A stretch of 64,000 nucleotides of DNA from Patescibacteria group bacterium (GTDB taxonomy: Bacteria > Patescibacteriota > Patescibacteriia > Patescibacteriales > UBA12075), in NCBI GenBank assembly GCA_022705905.1, contig JAKJDO010000002.1, positions 8,872 through 72,871 on the forward strand. The letters are read 5' to 3'. This document shows, one piece after another, positions 6,358 through 59,713 of the stretch; the stretch's first letter is position 1, and the number at the start of each line of letters is the position of its first letter. The position numbers and the translations under genes are program-made. The notes beneath the pieces are model-generated. The model searched no databases and was not told the origin of the DNA. It saw nothing but the letters and a program-made list of their open reading frames with translations.

Positions 6358-7458
6358 ATGAAGCTTAGTGATTTTGATTATAATTTACCGAGAGAATTAA
6401 TTGCGCAAAAACCAGCAAAACCGCGAAATCATTCGCGGCTTTTGGTTTTAGATAAAAAATCTGGCAAAATTGAACATAAACATTTTTATAACATCATTGA
6501 TTTTTTGCAAGCCGGTGATGTTTTGGTTTTAAATAATTCTAAAGTTTTTCCAGCGCGTTTAATCGGCAATAAGAAAGAGACTGGTGGAAAGATGGAAGTA
6601 TTTTTGCACAGACGACAAAATGATTCTGTTTGGCAGTGTATGCTTGGCGGCCGCGGTGCGAAAGTTGGTTTGATGGTCGTGTTTAACAAAGGTTTAGAAG
6701 GAGAGGTTATAAAAAACAATAACGACGGAACTTGGGAGGTTAAATTTAATAAAGCCAGAGAGGCGATGATAAAAGTTGTTAACCAAATTGGGCAAGTGCC
6801 ATTACCGCCTTATATTAAACGGCATAATTCTAAAAAAAGCGACGTTGATAACTATCAAACTGTATATGCAGATAAAATTGGATCAGTGGCGGCGCCTACG
6901 GCCGGTTTGCATTTTACGCCGAGTTTGCTCAAAAAAATAAAATCCAAAGGCGTTAAAGTTTTGTATGTAACTTTGCATGTCGGTTTGGGGACTTTTTCGC
7001 CAGTTAAAGTTGATGATTTAACGAAACATAAAATGCATGCTGAGTGGGTCGAGATTAAAAAAGAAACCTTGCAAGAAATAATTAAAGCCAAAAAAGAAAA
7101 GAAAAGGATTGTTGCCGTAGGTACTACATCGGCCAGAACACTAGAATCATTTTTTAGTGTCATTCTGAGCGTAGCGAAGAATCCCGAAAATTGGCGCATC
7201 AATCATGGGATCCTTCGTCTTGATAAATCAGGACTCAGGATGACAGATTATTCTGGTTGGACCGATATTTTTATTTACCCTGGCTATAAATTTAAAGTTG
7301 TCGATTCTTTGATCACTAATTTTCACTTGCCAAAATCTAGTTTAATCATGCTTATTTCCGCCTTGGCTGGCAGTAATAAAATTAAAAAAGCTTATCGGGA
7401 GGCTATTAAGAAGAAATATAGATTTTATAGCTACGGCGATGCGATGTTTATTTATTAA
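6358..7458 (+). CDS. queA: S-adenosylmethionine:tRNA ribosyltransferase-isomerase QueA
   Basis: MKLSDFDYNLPRELIAQKP start, VAVGTTSARTLES, TNFHLPKSSLIMLISA, YRFYSYGDAMFIY C-terminus. Contains an in-frame repeat at 7158-7245. Confidence 0.9.
   Translation: MKLSDFDYNLPRELIAQKPAKPRNHSRLLVLDKKSGKIEHKHFYNIIDFLQAGDVLVLNNSKVFPARLIGNKKETGGKMEVFLHRRQNDSVWQCMLGGRGAKVGLMVVFNKGLEGEVIKNNNDGTWEVKFNKAREAMIKVVNQIGQVPLPPYIKRHNSKKSDVDNYQTVYADKIGSVAAPTAGLHFTPSLLKKIKSKGVKVLYVTLHVGLGTFSPVKVDDLTKHKMHAEWVEIKKETLQEIIKAKKEKKRIVAVGTTSARTLESFFSVILSVAKNPENWRINHGILRLDKSGLRMTDYSGWTDIFIYPGYKFKVVDSLITNFHLPKSSLIMLISALAGSNKIKKAYREAIKKKYRFYSYGDAMFIY
7158..7245. repeat. GC-rich hairpin mini-repeat inside queA
   Basis: tgtcattctgagcgtagcgaagaatccc...gggatccttcg...ctcaggatgaca. 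Translated as SVILSVAKNPENWRINHGILRLDKSGLRMT between the LES and TDIFIYPG motifs. Confidence 0.8.
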
Positions 7459-10369: not shown

Positions 10370-10397
10370 TTGACAGAAATTATAAATACTGTATAAT
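10370..10397 (+). promoter_or_regulatory. Strong sigma70-type promoter (TTGACA, 16 nt, extended TGTATAAT)
   Basis: ttgaca at 10370-10375, tgtataat at 10390-10397. Confidence 0.6.
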
Positions 10398-10426
10398 ATA
10401 AGCACGTGTAAAATTCGATAAAAAGT

Positions 10427-10518
10427 ATGAAAAAAATCAGAATAACTACTAAATATAAAAGCGGTTAATTACTTGCCTAATTAGGTGTTGTAAAGCAACC
10501 GCTGAAGGGCGGTTTTTT
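10427..10518 (+). promoter_or_regulatory. 13-codon leader ORF plus antiterminator/terminator switch upstream of the 23S rRNA
   Basis: ORF MKKIRITTKYKSG (10427-10468). agcggtt (10460-10466) and gcggtt (10509-10514) both complement aaccgc(t) (10497-10503). T6 run at 10513-10518. Confidence 0.4.
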
Positions 10519-10675
10519 GTTTCTTTAAATAAGGCAGTTTGGAAATTTAATGTTGGAAGTTAAAGTAATTTAATTTTCAACTGCAATTTCTAAGAGAAGC
10601 TGAACTTTGACAATTTAAGAGAGCATCTAAAAATATAAGAACCAATAATAAGATTATTAAAATCAATAATGTGAG

Positions 10676-13945
<3,270 letters not shown>

Positions 13946-14001
13946 CACATTATTGGTTTTAAAAAAATTCGTTCATAGTTAAAATATAAAAAGCGCCATC
14001 G

Positions 14002-27120: not shown

Positions 27121-27121
27121 G

Positions 27122-27194
27122 TGCGCTAGGATGGATTTGAACCATCGACCCCCGCTTTATAAGAGCGGTGCTCTAACCACTGAGCTACTAGCGC
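27122..27194 (-). tRNA. tRNA-Ile (anticodon UAU)
   Basis: Minus strand: gcgctag-ta-gctc-agtggtt-agagc-a-ccgct-CTTATAA-agcgg-gggtc-gatgg-ttcaaat-ccatc-ctagcgc-a. Confidence 0.85.
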
Positions 27195-55130: not shown

Positions 55131-55742
55131 ATGGAACATCCAAGCAAGGAAAGAACCTTAGTAATTATTAAGCCAGACGGAGTTCAGCGTTCGTTGATTG
55201 GCGAAATTGTCCGTAGATACGAGCGCACCGGTTTAAAATTAACCGGTTTAAAAATGGTAATTCCAACCGAAGAATTAGCAACTAAGCATTACTATGAAGT
55301 AGGCGGCGATGCCTGGATAGAAGAAGTTGGCCGTAAAGCCCGAGCTTCTTACGAAAAAAAAGGTTTAACTTCGCCTTATAAAACTAACTCCGAAAATGGT
55401 TGGGCGGTCTTAAAATCTAACGCTAAATATTTAAGCTCCGGTCCGGTAGTTTGTATGATTTGGCAAGGCAACCAGGCAGTGGCCTTAGTTAGGAAAATAA
55501 CCGGCGGCACCGAACCGTTAACATCAGATGTCGGCAGCATCCGTGGTGATTTTACTTTAGATTCATATTCAATTGCCGACACCGATCAACGTAGTGTCCG
55601 CAATTTAATCCATGCTTCCGGCGCTACCGATGAGGCTGAAAAAGAAATAGCGATTTGGTTTAAAAAGGATGAAATTTCTCAGTATAGGCTAATTGCCGAA
55701 AGTATCCTTTATGACGTTAACTTAGACGGAATAAAAGAGTAA
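55131..55742 (+). CDS. ndk: Nucleoside diphosphate kinase (long form with internal insertion)
   Basis: ERTLVIIKPDGVQR, NLIHASG. About 50 aa longer than typical Ndk. Confidence 0.85.
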   Translation: MEHPSKERTLVIIKPDGVQRSLIGEIVRRYERTGLKLTGLKMVIPTEELATKHYYEVGGDAWIEEVGRKARASYEKKGLTSPYKTNSENGWAVLKSNAKYLSSGPVVCMIWQGNQAVALVRKITGGTEPLTSDVGSIRGDFTLDSYSIADTDQRSVRNLIHASGATDEAEKEIAIWFKKDEISQYRLIAESILYDVNLDGIKE

Positions 55743-55797
55743 TACTTGGCGCGTCGTTATGGAAAAACGGACTTTTGACTTTTAAGTTCGTTTTTTA

Positions 55798-55990
55798 TTG
55801 ACAAAGCCCTTACTTTGGTATAAGATATTGTTATATGGAAAAAGCCATACTCAAAATTCAGAATGTATTTACCATTATTTTAGTCGTATTGGTCGGCATT
55901 ATTATGCCGGAATTTGAGATGGTCAAGAAAGTATAAGGTAAAAAAATAACATAGATTATAAAGGGCCATCTCAACCGAGACGGCCCTTTT
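55798..55990 (+). promoter_or_regulatory. Module U1: promoter, tiny ORF 55835..55936 (MEKAILKIQNVFTIILVVLVGIIMPEFEMVKKV), alternative hairpins, terminator
   Basis: TTGACA at 55798. ctcaaaattc (55850-59) pairs with gaatttgag (55910-18). gagatggtc (55916-24) pairs with gggccatctc (55963-72), which otherwise pairs with gagacggccc (55977-86) followed by T4. Confidence 0.5.
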
Positions 55991-56006
55991 AGTTTGTTCT
56001 TTGACA

Positions 56007-56296
56007 GTCCTTGCTAAACTCTAGCTTTAGAGGAATGGGGAGAAACATAGAATTTTTTTAAACAGCTTAGGGGGTGTAAATCTTATGGATACGGGCATTA
56101 ACGGAACAAACAGAAAAACGAATATAATCAAGAGCAATATCCAGTCCTTAAACGGCAGGCTGGAAATTGCCATAACAAGGGGTGACGAACATGATGCGAG
56201 ACTTTACCGATTTCAGCTGAAACAGGCCTGGACAGGACTGAGCCGTTTGGAACCGGCAGAGTTTCCTGAGACTTAAAACAGAGAGTTAGCAAGGAC
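56007..56296 (+). repeat. 16-17 nt inverted repeat bracketing ORF 56085..56276
   Basis: gtccttgctaaactct (56007-56022) versus agagagttagcaaggac (56280-56296), starting 4 nt after the stop codon. Small terminator at 56298-56319. Confidence 0.6.
56085..56276 (+). CDS. Island ORF A, 63 aa, unknown
   Basis: Track ORF; a purine-rich gggggtg precedes the ATG. Confidence 0.45.
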   Translation: MDTGINGTNRKTNIIKSNIQSLNGRLEIAITRGDEHDARLYRFQLKQAWTGLSRLEPAEFPET

Positions 56297-56395
56297 GAGT
56301 GGCGTTAGTCACTATTTTTCGGAGACTAGGATACCGTCCTACTCCATTCGGGGGTCTTACCCAGATCCCCTTATTTTCCTAAAAATAATTTATAT

Positions 56396-56527
56396 ATGAA
56401 AAATTTTCAGAAAAATTTAAACATTATTATTATCGTTATTATTATTTTAAATAATGTTGTTTAAGTTTTTTTGAAGACAAAAAGAAAATAAAAGAGGGCG
56501 GTCTTTAAAAGAATGTCCGCTTTTTAG
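56396..56527 (+). promoter_or_regulatory. Module U1b: tiny ORF 56396..56464 (MKNFQKNLNIIIIVIIILNNVV) plus AU-rich hairpin and weak terminator
   Basis: Seven Ile codons in a run of eight. aatttaaacatt (56414-25) pairs imperfectly with aatgttgtttaagtt (56453-67). gggcgg/ccgc stem followed by T5 at 56496-56525. Confidence 0.35.
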
Positions 56528-56570
56528 ACAAAACAAAAACGCTCTTATTAAATTTTTTAAGGAGGATAAT

Positions 56571-56846
56571 ATGACAGACGAGACTTCATGCGGAATTTTT
56601 TCAGGCGTATTTCTCAATGAAGATGCAGTGAGAAGTTCTTTACAGGAGCAACACGCTATCGTCGGCGTTATTTTGTTAGACGGAAGAGTTGCTACCTATT
56701 TAGATTCCCAGTCTGATCACGGTGGATGTGTCAGAAATAGGTTGAATAACAGGATGTCAATTGTTAGAACCATTTGTGACTGTAAGCGAATTTCCCATGC
56801 GGGGATAAAGATTATCAGCACCAACGATGATTTGGCGGCAAAATAA
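56571..56846 (+). CDS. Island ORF B, 91 aa, unknown
   Basis: SD AAGGAGG 6 nt upstream. Confidence 0.5.
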   Translation: MTDETSCGIFSGVFLNEDAVRSSLQEQHAIVGVILLDGRVATYLDSQSDHGGCVRNRLNNRMSIVRTICDCKRISHAGIKIISTNDDLAAK

Positions 56847-56874
56847 CCCAGACTTGAAAAAAAAGGAGAAGACC

Positions 56875-56931
56875 ATGAACCTGAAAGAATATTTTATCGA
56901 CAATGACGACAAAGACCAAAGAGTATTTTAA
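56875..56931 (+). CDS. Possible 18-aa acidic peptide (MNLKEYFIDNDDKDQRVF)
   Basis: SD AAAGGAG 6 nt upstream; hand-translated. Confidence 0.3.
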   Translation: MNLKEYFIDNDDKDQRVF

Positions 56932-56958
56932 GATATACTCTTGGAGAAGAGTGGAAAA

Positions 56959-57222
56959 ATGCCAGTTGGTTACTGTGCAGTGTACGGTTTTGACAATGGT
57001 GCGGCGTACATTATAGATGAACCCAGCGAGACAAAGAAGTCTTTCTCATATTTTGAGAGCTTAACTAAGCGAGAAGCTTCTTTAGGAAAAGACTCCGGTA
57101 TAGTTATCAGGTCGAATGGCGTGCCATTTTTAACTGTTGGCGAACCATTTGAGAAATGGCTCAGGGCTTATAAAATGCCTGGGCATGACGTATTTGTCCT
57201 GGAGGGGAAAGACGGAACCTAG
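56959..57222 (+). CDS. Island ORF C, 87 aa, unknown
   Basis: Track ORF 56941..57222; the ATG at 56959 is preferred. Confidence 0.5.
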   Translation: MPVGYCAVYGFDNGAAYIIDEPSETKKSFSYFESLTKREASLGKDSGIVIRSNGVPFLTVGEPFEKWLRAYKMPGHDVFVLEGKDGT

Positions 57223-57242
57223 ACCGTCAGCGAGTATTGCTT

Positions 57243-57290
57243 GCTCCTCGCCATATACCTTTTCAATTATTGGCGAGGAGCTTGATTTTT
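57243..57290 (+). terminator. Intrinsic terminator after ORF C
   Basis: gctcctcgcca...tggcgaggagc followed by a T-run. Confidence 0.8.
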
Positions 57291-57464
57291 CTTATTAATG
57301 TGTTAATATAAAAACAGTATGATACAAGCTAAGCAACAAGCATTGTTATTAGGTTTATTGTTATTACTACCTTCGCGGGTGGCTTGTTTTCATGTAAAAA
57401 ATAGGTAAATAAGATTTACATAAAAACGCAGAATGGCTGCCCGCATCAAGCGGGTAGTTTTTTT
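57282..57464 (+). promoter_or_regulatory. Module U2: promoter, tiny ORF 57319..57408 (MIQAKQQALLLGLLLLLPSRVACFHVKNR), alternative hairpins, terminator
   Basis: TTGATT-16-TAATAT. atgatacaagc (57319-29) pairs with gcttgttttcat (57382-93). gcgggtggc (57375-83) pairs with gctgcccgc (57436-44), which otherwise pairs with gcgggtag (57450-57) followed by T7. Confidence 0.5.
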
Positions 57465-57492
57465 GTGATCAAAAGGAGGAGGTTCATTCAAG

Positions 57493-57777
57493 ATGAGTAA
57501 ATTACAAGCACAAACATCTGACAAACAATTTTCGTGTATCGGCGGTTGTGGCGACCTCGTGTATAGCAAAGGTGAAAAGTGTGCTTCCTGCCAAAGAGCA
57601 GAAGCGACTGTAACTTTTTTGATCAAACAAGGAGGGGGTGAAATAAGAGACTGGGAAAGTTGCCCAACATATCAAAGGATCGAGCAACCGTGTGAAAATG
57701 AGTGCTCCGGTTGCATGAGGGCCTGGAGTATAAAAGAGACGAGAAGACAAGTCGGCGCAGCAATAGTCAATGCCTAA
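57493..57777 (+). CDS. Island ORF D, 94 aa, Cys-rich (two zinc-ribbon-like clusters)
   Basis: SD GGAGGAGG. CIGGC...CASC and CPTYQRIEQPCENECSGC. Confidence 0.55.
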   Translation: MSKLQAQTSDKQFSCIGGCGDLVYSKGEKCASCQRAEATVTFLIKQGGGEIRDWESCPTYQRIEQPCENECSGCMRAWSIKETRRQVGAAIVNA

Positions 57778-57797
57778 ACGATACAAGGAGGAGCTCT

Positions 57798-57947
57798 ATG
57801 AAAAATTCTATGGAAGATCGTGTTTGCCGTTGCTCCAATCCGCATTACAGAGGCGGAGTATGTATAACTTGCGGCGGGAAGTTTGTCGTCAAGTCAATTC
57901 GGCCGCTTTGTTGCCGAGTACCAATTCCGCCCAAGCCGCCTAGGTGA
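57798..57947 (+). CDS. Island ORF E, 49 aa, zinc-ribbon-like
   Basis: SD AAGGAGG. CRC...CITCGG. Confidence 0.5.
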   Translation: MKNSMEDRVCRCSNPHYRGGVCITCGGKFVVKSIRPLCCRVPIPPKPPR

Positions 57948-57972
57948 CAGTCGGATCAATGCTCTCTTGTTC

Positions 57973-58005
57973 GAGGGGTGGCTTTATGTCCACCCCGCTT
58001 TTTTT
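57973..58005 (+). terminator. Intrinsic terminator after ORF E
   Basis: ggggtgg ctttatgt ccacccc followed by T7. Confidence 0.8.
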
Positions 58006-58034
58006 ATTAAAATTAGGTAAAAAATAGGACATGC

Positions 58035-58237
58035 TTGCATTTTTGTGTAATTTTGGTATAATTATCCACAAGAGTAAAGATATGATTAAAACATCACTAA
58101 GAAACAATTTCTATTTTGGCTTTTATTTTAGTCTCCAGGGGAGATCGTTTCTTAGTGGTGTTTTGACGAAATAGTAAAAAACAAACACCATTAGGGAAAA
58201 CAAAACGAGCCTCCCCGTAAACCGGGGAGGTTTGTTT
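58035..58237 (+). promoter_or_regulatory. Module U3: promoter, tiny ORF 58082..58174 (MIKTSLRNNFYFGFYFSLQGRSFLSGVLTK), 18-bp hairpin, terminator
   Basis: TTGCAT-16-TGgTATAAT. aaaacatcactaagaaac (58088-105) pairs with gtttcttagtggtgtttt (58147-64). ggggag (58138-43) can pair with ctcccc of the terminator cctccccg/cggggagg (58210-30). Confidence 0.5.
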
Positions 58238-58261
58238 ATTAAGAAAAATAGTTTAAATAAC

Positions 58262-58389
58262 ATGAAAAAGATATTACAAACAACGAGCTTCTATTTCTAC
58301 CTTTACTTTTTTAGATAAAGGCTGGTTGTTTGTGATATTTTAAATCACAAAAAGAAAAAGAACCGGCCTTGAAGAAAGTCCGGTTCTTT
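58262..58389 (+). promoter_or_regulatory. Module U4: tiny ORF 58262..58318 (MKKILQTTSFYFYLYFFR), 14-bp hairpin, terminator-like stem
   Basis: atattacaaacaac (58271-84) pairs with gttgtttgtgatat (58325-38). ctggttgtt (58322-30) can pair with aagaaccgg (58358-66), which otherwise pairs with ccggttctt (58380-88). Confidence 0.45.
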
Positions 58390-58448
58390 AATTATATAGA
58401 TCTTTAGCAATTATCTTAACTATCCTACATCAGGGAGGAAGACGACAG

Positions 58449-58667
58449 ATGGGAAAAGAGCTTATTTGGGTTGGAGAAAAGTGTCATCAGCTAGTAACAA
58501 TCGCTAGTAACGACAAGCACGAGGGGGTGTGTCCAGAGTGCGGTAACGTAGAGTACGCGATACGCGGGTTTTTACATTCCGATGGCACTATTGAAGAGGC
58601 AACTATCGACAGCGTCAGTCGGTGGTTAAGGGAAAAGGTGCAAGAAGCAGCAGCAAAAGCTGCTTAA
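58449..58667 (+). CDS. Island ORF F, 72 aa, zinc-ribbon-like (CH...CPEC)
   Basis: SD GGGAGG; track ORF. Confidence 0.55.
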   Translation: MGKELIWVGEKCHQLVTIASNDKHEGVCPECGNVEYAIRGFLHSDGTIEEATIDSVSRWLREKVQEAAAKAA

Positions 58668-58686
58668 TACGAGGAGGTTTGAAACC

Positions 58687-59037
58687 ATGAAAGAAACACA
58701 GACACAGACGATAATTTCAGGCGCGATGTTTTTCCGGCTCGGCGGTTACTTTGAGGACGACACCCATCTTCAGTGGCTCAGAAAAGCCCTTGAGGAAAGG
58801 GGTGTTATGCTGATCGATACAGAGCCGTTGCCTTTGAAGCCGCATCTCAATCAGAAGCCGACAGGAACCCAGGTCTCAATCGAGGCCGGCATACTCGAAC
58901 CGCTTGAAGTGACGGAACTGATGTGTCCGGCATTGAGAGCAAGAGTCCTCGGCTTCTCTTGGACGGCTGAGCCCGACCCTGAGCATTCGGAAAGGATCGA
59001 TTCTGTCGGCACCAAGTCGCAGGAAGCTGCGAGGTGA
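58687..59037 (+). CDS. Island ORF G, 116 aa, unknown
   Basis: SD GAGGAGG; about 52% GC in the sampled row 58801-58860. Confidence 0.55.
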   Translation: MKETQTQTIISGAMFFRLGGYFEDDTHLQWLRKALEERGVMLIDTEPLPLKPHLNQKPTGTQVSIEAGILEPLEVTELMCPALRARVLGFSWTAEPDPEHSERIDSVGTKSQEAAR

Positions 59038-59041
59038 CGAC

Positions 59042-59209
59042 ATGGACGAACAGGCAGTAGGAGAATACAACTTCTTCACTTATGATTCAGGCGACAAGGG
59101 CGACCACCAGCCGGCAGAAGGGGAGACATCCAGTTCTTCTCCATCATCAACAACAGCGCCTTCAGAACAGAAGCGCATCAAGTACCTCTTCTCAGATGTG
59201 GGGAGGTAG
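59042..59209 (+). CDS. Island ORF H, 55 aa, acidic/Ser-rich
   Basis: ATG 4 nt after the ORF G stop codon; hand-translated MDEQAVGEYNFFTYDSGDKGDHQPAEGETSSSSPSSTTAPSEQKRIKYLFSDVGR. Confidence 0.4.
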   Translation: MDEQAVGEYNFFTYDSGDKGDHQPAEGETSSSSPSSTTAPSEQKRIKYLFSDVGR

Positions 59210-59249
59210 CAAAGCCCGATAGCAAACGGGGAAGGAGGTAGTCAGATTA

Positions 59250-59290
59250 GGTCCGGGGAACGTAAGTACCTGGACCTTCTTTTTATTTTT
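59250..59290 (+). terminator. Intrinsic terminator closing the F-G-H unit
   Basis: ggtccgg...cctggacc followed by a T-rich tract. Confidence 0.7.
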
Positions 59291-59359
59291 AAAACTTGAC
59301 AATTTTTAAAACTTATGCTATACTTTTTAAACAAAAAATGCCCTTTGAAAGGAAAAACA

Positions 59360-59713
59360 ATGGACAAAAAGCATATATTGGTTCTTGATGACGAGCCAGA
59401 ACTTACAAATTTTTTGTCAGATTGCCTTGACAGCTATGAAGTCAAGCAGTGCACCAAAACCGACGAAGCTATCGACGAGTTAAAAAACAGCCCAGAGAAA
59501 TATTTTGGCTGCATAATTGACAACGATATCGATGAAGTTGGTGGTGGCGTAAGGTTTGCCAAAACGATAAAGAGCCTAAAGATCGTAACCACGATCGTTA
59601 TGTTCACGGGCAAACCTTTGCAAAAAGAGGAAGAAGCGGTAATCAGGAATACGGTTGATCGGTTAGAAAAGAAGCCGGTCTCTGTCAAAACAATCAGAAC
59701 AATATTCCCTTAG
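59360..59713 (+). CDS. Divergent stand-alone receiver (REC) domain protein
   Basis: ILVLDDEPE, IIDNDI, MFTG, EKKP pattern. Promoter TTGACA-17-TATACT at 59296-59324. Confidence 0.6.
   Translation: MDKKHILVLDDEPELTNFLSDCLDSYEVKQCTKTDEAIDELKNSPEKYFGCIIDNDIDEVGGGVRFAKTIKSLKIVTTIVMFTGKPLQKEEEAVIRNTVDRLEKKPVSVKTIRTIFP

Follow-up and report, generated by a model that had tools for sequence, protein, structure and literature searches.

A conserved leucine-run leader in a Parcubacteria genome is most likely a transcription attenuator with exchangeable cargo

The 64,000-nt stretch of contig JAKJDO010000002.1 that was analyzed (the window) contains a short transcription unit, U2, in which a 29-codon open reading frame (ORF) with a run of leucine codons is followed by an intrinsic terminator and by two genes for small cysteine-rich proteins, ORFs D and E. 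Comparison with homologs indicates that U2 most likely responds to the supply of leucine by ribosome-mediated transcription attenuation, with the ORF as its leader peptide. The initial annotation had offered both a Leu-tRNA-sensing attenuator and a signal-peptide-like or toxin peptide, and the comparison favors the former through the identity of the leucine residues, the statistics of the anti-terminator, folds with a masked ribosome and a homolog in front of the 2-isopropylmalate synthase gene leuA. All elements described there are present at the given positions: the promoter TTGATT-16-TAATAT (57282-57309), the ORF with 8 Leu in 9 codons (57343-57369 within 57319-57408), and the terminator gctgcccgc/gcgggtag with its T7 tract (57435-57464), of which the 3' arm gcgggtAg (57450-57) differs by one base from an upstream copy, gcgggtGg (57375-82).

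The host of the window is a Parcubacteria genome of the candidate phyla radiation (CPR) with the database protein name 'Parcubacteria group bacterium ADurb.Bin316', and DNA identical to the window is present in GCA_002069505.1 and in several anaerobic-digester and sewage metagenomes. Homologs of U2 were collected from related Parcubacteria, which resulted in seven complete copies and one partial copy (L011) in five sequence versions. The partial copy was reached via a 52%-identical homolog of the 93-aa protein encoded upstream of U2. A scan anchored on the neighboring gene ndk, with one genome per species (L012-L042), yielded U2-like modules in L014 and L034 by blastn and nhmmer, contigs with close ndk homologs contained complete copies in L045, L049 and L054 (L055 is identical to L054), and L043 was located by a degenerate DNA pattern of the leucine run, which was found in this one JGI contig only and in no viral contig. 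Contigs of the same species (L001-L010, 99.2-100% identical) show no polymorphism within U2, and therefore population data on U2 are uninformative.

The substitutions in the leader ORF were analyzed in six homologs. Third codon positions take 14 of the 27 minimum changes (p = 0.036). In codons 9-17, which form the leucine run, at least five synonymous and no non-synonymous changes were counted, and codons 2-8 show 4 synonymous and 11 non-synonymous changes, so that the N-terminus varies freely. Leucine is retained at all run positions in all homologs except at the first position in L034, where an uncertain part of the alignment places Asn. The run is spelled tta tta ggc cta ttg ctt tta tta ttg in L034 and is recoded with CTN codons in L054 (ttg ctt ttg gga ctt cta ctc ctt ctt ctg), and frame, start and approximate length of the ORF are kept in eight homologs including L054. 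In a generic membrane helix, Leu is expected to be exchanged with Ile, Val and Phe, each of which is one mutation away. These data support conservation of the run as amino-acid identity, and not as sequence or mere hydrophobicity, and suggest that the leader ORF is probably translated. The ORF ends 12 codons past the leucine run in the window and 10 codons past it in L014 and L043. In L034 the C-terminal peptide is not conserved, and its frame is shifted relative to the conserved RNA motif CGCGG..GGCUU.UUUU. Therefore, the 3' part seems to be kept as RNA and the leucine run as codons, a pattern that would be expected of a sensory leader.

The ORF is preceded by a conserved promoter, of which the key columns are invariant in six homologs (Table 1). 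The -10 element TAATAT (57304-57309) is preceded by TGT. The generic promoter scan did not list this promoter because it matches the consensus at only 8 of 12 positions. Hexamers and the spacing between -10 and ATG are conserved and the sequence of the spacer varies; seven homologs have 9 nt between the -10 hexamer and the ATG, and L043 has 10 nt. From this conserved gap of ~9 nt and the lack of a Shine-Dalgarno (SD) sequence, we infer that transcription starts 2-3 nt before the ATG and that the ORF is translated from a leaderless or near-leaderless start. Leaderless sensory short ORFs have an established precedent in mycobacteria (bioRxiv 10.1101/834739).

For the anti-terminator, the best duplex of the terminator 5' arm (region 3) with the sequence that extends from the ATG up to the terminator was compared with the duplexes of dinucleotide shuffles. 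In the window this duplex reached -17.5 kcal/mol (z = -3.7, p = 0.004) and the best partner was exactly 57374-57384, which coincides with the pairing 57375-57383/57436-57444 of 9 bp with two G-U that had been proposed from the single sequence. The corresponding values were p = 0.004 for L014, p = 0.01 for L043 and p = 0.006 for L054, and for L045 and L049 none of 200 shuffles was as good as the real duplex. The test was extended to family modules in the island and its relatives, a family module being defined as a promoter, a short ORF with an Ile, Val, Leu or Phe-Tyr run, and a terminator, followed by SD-led small genes. Thirteen of the 15 modules gave p ≤ 0.05, with partners ending 1-26 nt before the end of the stop codon. 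As a control, 56 ordinary terminators that follow ORFs of at least 90 codons at the same loci were used, and none of these reached p ≤ 0.05 (0/56; mean -6.4 kcal/mol). The alternative of anti-terminator and terminator is thus more than chance.

Across five homologs the U2 anti-terminator is 91% paired and includes one change of G-U to G-C, and terminator arms of four different sequences (GCUGCCCGC, CCACCC, GCCACCCG and AGCCCCGC) have stayed complementary to their upstream partner. In the terminator itself, one UA pair is replaced by CG as a compensatory change, and one GU pair by AU. For the sister module U1, four distinct sequences of the equivalent helix are available, which are 100% paired and differ by compensatory changes at two positions (A-U/G-C/G.U and U.G/C-G/U-A), and in the sister module U3 complementarity is kept with three sequence pairs (GGGGAG/CUCCCC, GGAGAGC/GCUCUCC and GAGGAG/CUCCUC).

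The U2 terminator (57435-57459 plus T7) has a 10-bp stem of -16.5 kcal/mol, and the whole leader, folded to minimum energy, forms a series of hairpins of which this terminator is the last (z = -3.8). This single-sequence fold of the window contains neither the anti-terminator nor a helix around the start codon (P1), and therefore the question was addressed by the statistics and the homologs; the apparent refutation by this fold was overturned by folds of nascent RNA and by the homologs. When the RNA ends just past region 3, the minimum-energy fold has 57375-84 (region 2) paired with 57435-44 (region 3), stacked on a hairpin H3. H3 alone has -5.2 kcal/mol and the composite structure 57375-57444 has -23.4 kcal/mol; in L049 a hairpin of different sequence can be recognized by eye at the position of H3. 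For the full-length RNA of the window the terminator form has -41.7, the forced anti-terminator form -37.7 and the P1 form -38.6 kcal/mol. Since the terminator is only 4 kcal/mol better than the anti-terminator, the structure that forms first should decide the outcome.

P1 pairs the start region (57319-57329) with 57382-57393 in 10 pairs with one U.U mismatch and one bulge. The proposal of this helix is supported by the homologs: 98% of the cells are paired in five homologs, and one position reads UU/UG/CG/AU with both sides changing. P1 is part of the minimum-energy folds of L049, L014, L043 and L054 and is predicted to compete with the anti-terminator, because its 3' strand overlaps region 2. 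A second hairpin, H2 (57367-57382, -5.2 kcal/mol), whose 5' arm is region 1, is present in the minimum-energy fold of the window. It is also listed by the terminator scan because CUUGUUUUCA follows; CUUGUUUUC lies 3' of H2. The counterpart in L054 (11840-11855) is listed by the terminator scan as well, and in L034 region 2 pairs inside the leucine run. H2 is probably the functional '1:2' element and would work in addition to P1. In the trp leader the 1:2 hairpin serves as protector and pause element. By analogy, H2 could protect region 2 after a fast ribosome and pause the polymerase.

The effect of translation on these folds was modeled by masking 30 nt around the ribosomal A site before folding. 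In the window, the anti-terminator forms for every A-site position through the sixth Leu codon (57361), is abolished at A sites 57364-57391 and has 4 of its 9 pairs at 57394-57397. It also forms without any ribosome in the window, L049, L014, L043, L034 and L054. A ribosome at the end of the ORF blocks the pairing of regions 2 and 3 in L014, L043, L034 and L054, and the same attenuator logic, with the pairing kept for an A site in the first six or so Leu codons and lost for a ribosome past the run, is found in 6/6 lineages (window, L049, L014, L043, L034 and L054). The geometry of the ribosome footprint and the response to leucine itself are inferences.

The following mechanism is proposed. 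RNA polymerase would start 2-3 nt 5' of the ATG and the 29-codon leader would be translated leaderless or near-leaderless, and the RNA would then choose between two folds, region 2 with region 3 on top of H3, or region 3 with region 4 followed by U7. When charged tRNA-Leu is scarce, the ribosome would be held in the first six or so Leu codons and would cover region 1, which would otherwise lock region 2 in H2. Region 2 would stay free, the anti-terminator could form, and RNA polymerase would read into ORFs D and E. When leucine is plentiful, the ribosome would cross region 2 and H3, no anti-terminator would form, and transcription would stop at 57464. The likely role of P1 is to close the leader once the first ribosome has passed, or when the RNA has been terminated.

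The genomic context of the homolog in L054 was examined for the genes behind the leader. The ndk gene of L054 is 82% identical to that of the window. Its U2 homolog consists of TTGACA-17-TAATAT, 9 nt and ATG, the peptide MIQAYLKNLLLGLLLLLLPQRVACFHVNA, H2, region 2 CGGGUGGCUUG and the terminator CCACCC-AAGC-GGGUGG-U6, and it matches the U2 profile in nhmmer with E = 4.6e-15. It is located ~200 nt upstream of leuA, whose 534-aa product scores 720 bits with NF002086 (cut-off 532) and 643 bits with TIGR00973 (cut-off 599). The L054 homologs of the sister modules U3 and U4, with the runs YFYYFF and FYFYFFFGF, precede the genes for a DAHP synthase (TIGR00034, 244 bits, cut-off 173), an ACT protein and a prephenate dehydratase, the last assigned by a recorded Pfam PDT match. 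A further leader with an Ile run, AIIITLIRIIII, precedes a 150-aa protein with a weak match to the C-terminal domain of citramalate/isopropylmalate synthases (LeuA_dimer) of 32.8 bits, which is far below the cut-off. Three leaders in L054 with a run that matches the downstream pathway are the hallmark of classical attenuation.

Several points weigh against a leucine-sensing attenuator. The leader ORF has no SD, and its transcription start is a predicted one. The Leu codons used are TTA and TTG, which are the commonest and not rare ones. The runs of all family members are hydrophobic and no leader with a His, Thr or Arg run was found among the family modules, which would be compatible with a family of membrane peptides as well. 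In L034 the complementarity is reached only with a 3-nt bulge and lacks significance (p = 0.14), and in L014 and L043 two of the nine pairs are broken (C.A and A.A). Covariation between 57375-83 and 57436-44 had been suggested as a check in the initial annotation; complementarity was indeed kept, but no compensatory double change was found in the U2 helix across the five homologs. Region 2 is nearly invariant, which is uninformative because coding, H2 and P1 also constrain it. When the mask is placed on the last three codons or on the stop codon, pairing of regions 2 and 3 is again allowed in the window and L049. Finally, in the window and in 5/6 lineages the cargo is not a Leu-pathway gene, and in L054 promoter-like sites (9-10/12) lie between the leader terminator and leuA, so that leuA may have a second promoter.

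A rival explanation is a general sensor of translation rate, in which the switch would report any slowdown or failure of leader translation, e.g. by ribosome toxins or antibiotics, phage takeover or global starvation, and for which leucine would not be special. This would fit the fold model, in which the anti-terminator forms without a ribosome or with a ribosome before ~57364, and the cargo of the window and most lineages, which is unrelated to leucine metabolism. Such a sensor is nevertheless unlikely: Leu is strictly kept at 8-10 positions despite many synonymous changes, one homolog precedes leuA, and the runs of the sister leaders in L054 match the downstream pathway.

It is quite improbable that the peptide itself is the functional product, as a hydrophobic micro-protein in the membrane or of the type I toxin kind, with the hairpin and T-run as its own, somewhat leaky terminator. 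The peptides of the family are 18-39 aa long and combine a polar N-terminus with a hydrophobic stretch, six homologs share the motif PSR[VA]AC, the start codon is sequestered by P1 as it is by the fold-back helices of type I toxin mRNAs, and a second function has been described for leader peptides (peTrpL, PMC7298713). However, the exchange among L, I, V and F expected in a membrane helix was not seen, and in L034 the RNA motif and not the C-terminal peptide is conserved. No minus-strand promoter-like site was found in 57282-57470 by the promoter scan and no antisense promoter/terminator pair at U2, and the peptide matched no toxin or leader family of NCBIfam. The complementarity of the terminator arm to the 3' part of the ORF, seen in 13/15 modules and in none of the 56 controls, and the leuA and DAHP synthase contexts would also be left unexplained. 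The alternative of a signal-peptide-like or toxin peptide in the initial annotation is accordingly disfavored; a Sec or lipoprotein signal peptide was rejected because the ORF stops 12 codons past the leucine run, where a cleavage site and a mature protein would be expected, and for a toxin both a match to a profile hidden Markov model of a toxin or leader and an antisense promoter were missing.

A non-coding structured RNA with promoter, hairpins and terminator, in which the ORF is a by-product of U-rich sequence, would agree with the lack of an SD, with the strong predicted structure (z = -3.8) and with the neighboring modules U3, U4 and U0, which are dominated by hairpins of 20-28 bp. It is very improbable, since changes in the leucine run fall on third codon positions only and frame, start and approximate length are kept in eight homologs; moreover, D has no promoter of its own, and the RNA must therefore serve, at least at times, as a 5' leader. 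A simple terminator or insulator that works constitutively between two transcription units, with a near-copy of its arm present by chance or coding constraint, would be in line with the missing compensatory change in the U2 helix, but is hardly credible given p = 0.004-0.01 in four lineages (with p = 0.14 in L034), 0/56 controls and the same complementarity with different sequences in U1 and U3.

Table 1. Features of the U2 unit and its cargo (positions in the window).
Feature	Position	Strand	Remark
Hairpin ending the upstream 93-aa gene (ctcctcgcca...tggcgaggag)	57245..57281	+	5' boundary of the U2 unit; read in the sequence
-35 hexamer TTGATT	57282..57287	+	TTG invariant in six homologs
Extended -10, TGT TAATAT	57301..57309	+	TG and TAnnnT invariant in six homologs
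Leader ORF, 29 codons, MIQAKQQALLLGLLLLLPSRVACFHVKNR	57319..57408	+	No SD; coding-type substitution signature
P1 5' strand (start codon, codons 2-4)	57319..57329	+	Pairs with 57382-57393
Leu run TTG TTA TTA GGT TTA TTG TTA TTA CTA (8 Leu and invariant Gly)	57343..57369	+	8 Leu in 9 codons
Region 1, CUACCU (last Leu codon and Pro), 5' arm of H2	57367..57372	+	
Region 2, GCGGGUGGCU, putative anti-terminator arm	57375..57384	+	Near-copy of the terminator 3' arm
P1 3' strand, GCUUGUUUUCAU	57382..57393	+	Shares 2-3 nt with region 2 and 8 nt with H3
Hairpin H3	57386..57427	+	Last ORF codons and stop codon in 5' half and loop; stacks on the predicted 2:3 helix
Region 3, terminator 5' arm GGCUGCCCGC	57435..57444	+	
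Region 4, terminator 3' arm GCGGGUAGUU	57450..57459	+	
T7 tract of the intrinsic terminator	57458..57464	+	
SD of ORF D, AAGGAGGAGG	57473..57482	+	9 nt past the T tract
ORF D, 94 aa, Cys-rich ORFan	57493..57777	+	Putative regulated cargo
ORF E, 49 aa, Cys-rich ORFan	57798..57947	+	Putative regulated cargo
Terminator closing the U2-D-E unit	57975..57996	+	Terminator scan

The promoter scan identified no promoter-like site on the + strand between 57310 and 57492, and the gap between the T tract and the SD of ORF D is 9 nt. Therefore, transcription of D has to cross the U2 terminator. D and E both have an SD of the AAGGAGG type and cysteines in CxxC-type spacing. Their description as SD-led zinc-ribbon ORFs in the initial annotation holds for the SD; the zinc ribbon rests on the cysteine spacing, and there is no Pfam match. 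Among 5.8e9 proteins no homolog of D was found outside the species, and the AlphaFold2 model of D (pLDDT 37) is unusable. Two polymorphisms are present in D and one in E, all three at third codon positions.

Behind the leucine leader, L049 encodes a 96-aa Cys-rich protein, L014 a 60-aa protein with CPQC, L043 a 176-aa protein, L034 a 61-aa protein that resembles a zinc ribbon, and L054 LeuA. No similarity could be detected between D and the protein behind the L049 leader (E = 0.23), a search of the other loci with the cargo DNA gave no match, and the cargo DNA of window and L049 could not be aligned. The leader DNA, on the other hand, is 76% identical between window and L049, which equals the identity of the ndk DNA. 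The cargo of Leu leaders has a leucine content of 4.8%, compared with 8.1% for cargo behind the remaining leaders and 9.3% for the genome as a whole (Fisher p = 0.011), which is only a hint because residues and lineages are not independent. It weakly supports, for Leu, that leader-gated cargo is depleted in the sensed amino acid.

In L014 and L043 the U2 copy has been inserted downstream of a conserved, unrelated 102-aa gene, with prfB on its other side, and the same junction is empty in L018 (L014 1466-1999 compared with L018 240-384). The two copies have the same leader and different cargo. In L044 the island is present and U2 is absent. Since the junction in L018 is empty and the island in L044 lacks U2, leader and cargo behave as a cassette. 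The 102-aa gene was rejected as an anchor for U2 as it is unreliable, L018 having the gene without the module. The prfB at the L014/L043 junction shows a CTT TGA C frameshift site. In L034, a palindromic element CCTACGTCCCGC...GCGGGACT.CGG, which resembles a repetitive extragenic palindrome, occurs twice (6585-6615 and 6853-6890) and flanks the Leu leader. At the 5' boundary of U2, the hairpin at 57245-57281 was missed by the terminator scan because of its 17-nt loop; L011 also has a hairpin at this place, and L049 has one of different sequence.

U2 is part of an island of 3.6 kb (55743-59314) that is flanked by ndk (55131-55742) on one side and by a response-regulator gene (59315-59713) on the other. 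The genes of the island encode small proteins only and have a strong AAGGAGG-type SD. For the island proteins and the U1 and U2 peptides there was no credible match in Pfam, PHROGs, PADLOC or NCBIfam, and the 116-aa and 93-aa island proteins had no match in viral contigs. A leader-like module precedes every cargo operon of the island. U1 (55798-55995) encodes MEKAILKIQNVFTIILVVLVGIIMPEFEMVKKV, which is rich in Ile, Leu and Val, and has a covarying anti-terminator. U0 (56396-56530) encodes MKNFQKNLNIIIIVIIILNNVV inside a 28-bp hairpin (z = -6). U3 (58035-58240) and U4 (58262-58395) encode MIKTSLRNNFYFGFYFSLQGRSFLSGVLTK and MKKILQTTSFYFYLYFFR, respectively, each with a Phe/Tyr run and surrounded by a hairpin of ~20 bp. 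The motif CAYUAGGGAAAAC (58183-58200), which separates the long hairpin of U3 from the terminator, is almost invariant although its flanking helices covary, as seen by comparison with the U3 homologs in L013, L015, L016, L017 and L049. The 'terminator' of U4 (58357-58419) has a better T-run on the minus strand, where a promoter-like TTAAGA-17-TATAAT (58419-58391) could drive an antisense RNA across U4 that ends at the bidirectional terminator 58230-58210. In L054 (8847-14250) and likewise in L055, repeated TACGAAT and TTACAAA motifs flank several leader units. The 116-aa island protein (58687-59037) matched, in a search of protein representatives, only repeat units of giant proteins, namely P0005 (2289 aa, 19 stretches, E = 7e-18) and P0006 (3837 aa).

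Outside the island, a near-consensus promoter TTGACA..TATAAT and a 13-codon ORF (10427-10468) are located at 10370-10514, ~160 nt upstream of the 23S rRNA gene, and the 5' arm of the terminator 10497-10514 has a significant upstream partner; this element could be a regulated leader of the rRNA unit. The 23S rRNA match (10673-13948) has 3276 nt compared with 2925 nt of the model, which indicates insertions of ~350 nt. A tRNA-Ile gene on the minus strand (27121-27194) has the anticodon TAT (UAU), which is not the usual CAT-derived lysidine type.

As a tentative reading that we consider quite possible, the ndk-adjacent island may be a bank of portable starvation sensors specific for amino acids (Leu, Ile, Ile/Leu/Val and Phe/Tyr) whose cargo is swapped between lineages. 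The sensors would be conserved about as well as a housekeeping gene, with leuA, DAHP synthase and pheA as cargo in one lineage and fast-evolving Cys-rich mini-proteins in others. Members of the CPR are expected to depend on outside amino acids. If the reading is true, classical attenuators are used here to switch on small proteins at amino-acid shortage and not for biosynthesis. Independently of this reading, the window and related genomes contain a family of leaders in Parcubacteria, with an apparently leaderless start and an arrangement as cassettes, in which the Leu leader is kept while the cargo shifts from leuA to tiny Cys-rich ORFans. This offers a testable handle on amino-acid sensing in reduced symbionts and on the role of the ORFan mini-proteins of the CPR. 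It is also a warning for annotation, as 'hypothetical proteins' of 27-39 aa in such genomes are probably leader peptides.

Leader-peptide attenuation belongs to textbook knowledge but is documented for few phyla. According to a survey of 2010, which itself added Firmicutes, it had previously been demonstrated in Proteobacteria and Actinobacteria only (PMC2965389), and a full-text literature search found no paper linking attenuation with Patescibacteria or CPR. In a search of 55700-59400 with Rfam (E ≤ 10), no leader family, among them Leu_leader RF00512, Leu/phe leader RF01743, Trp_leader RF00513 and Phe_leader RF01859, scored at its gathering threshold; the best score at U2 was Trp_leader with 20.1 bits (gathering 41, E = 1), and the scores of U3/U4 with Phe_leader were sub-threshold (19.9-21 bits, gathering 55). 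For the Phe/Tyr-run modules the E. coli pheA and pheST leaders (Rfam Phe_leader RF01859) serve as comparison. U3 and U4 resemble them in the runs FYFGFYF and FYFYLYFF and in the L054 homologs before DAHP synthase and prephenate dehydratase, and differ in that Phe and Tyr are mixed (with Trp in two distant modules) and a hairpin of 20 bp encloses the ORF. Type I toxin mRNAs (Fst, Ibs, TisB, Hok/AapA1) encode peptides of less than 35 aa in a structured mRNA in which a 5'-3' helix hides the start codon. U2 shares the short hydrophobic peptide, the structured RNA and the helix over the start codon, but has no antisense RNA locus, no SD and no family match, and a predicted terminator/anti-terminator gates the downstream genes.

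In the mycobacterial polycysteine short ORFs, which are leaderless, a stalled ribosome frees a sequestered ribosome-binding site and thereby controls translation, and several of these leaders in one genome make up a ribosome-directed regulon (bioRxiv 10.1101/834739). U2 is likewise apparently leaderless, has a run of one residue, is predicted to have its downstream RNA remodeled by the ribosome and is one of several leaders in the genome; it differs by the intrinsic terminator in place of a sequestered ribosome-binding site and by Leu instead of Cys. Attenuators with Leu leader peptides have been described for leuA of Actinobacteria (PMC1262725), and a Leu-rich attenuator peptide for the ilv-leu operon of Staphylococcus aureus (PMC5794164). 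U2 is similar to such Leu and branched-chain attenuators, e.g. the enterobacterial leu leader RF00512, in its ORF with Leu codons, the putative 1:2, 2:3 and 3:4 hairpins and the intrinsic terminator, and its relative in L054 also resembles the classical leu leaders in leuA as the regulated gene. Unlike the known leu leaders, U2 has no SD and an apparently leaderless start, the fold-back helix P1 at the start codon and H3 stacked on the predicted anti-terminator, and it is found in a Parcubacterium with Cys-rich ORFans as cargo in the window. The architecture of a Leu attenuator and the logic deduced for it are thus known, and new are the sequence family, the phylum, the apparently leaderless start and the swapped cargo.

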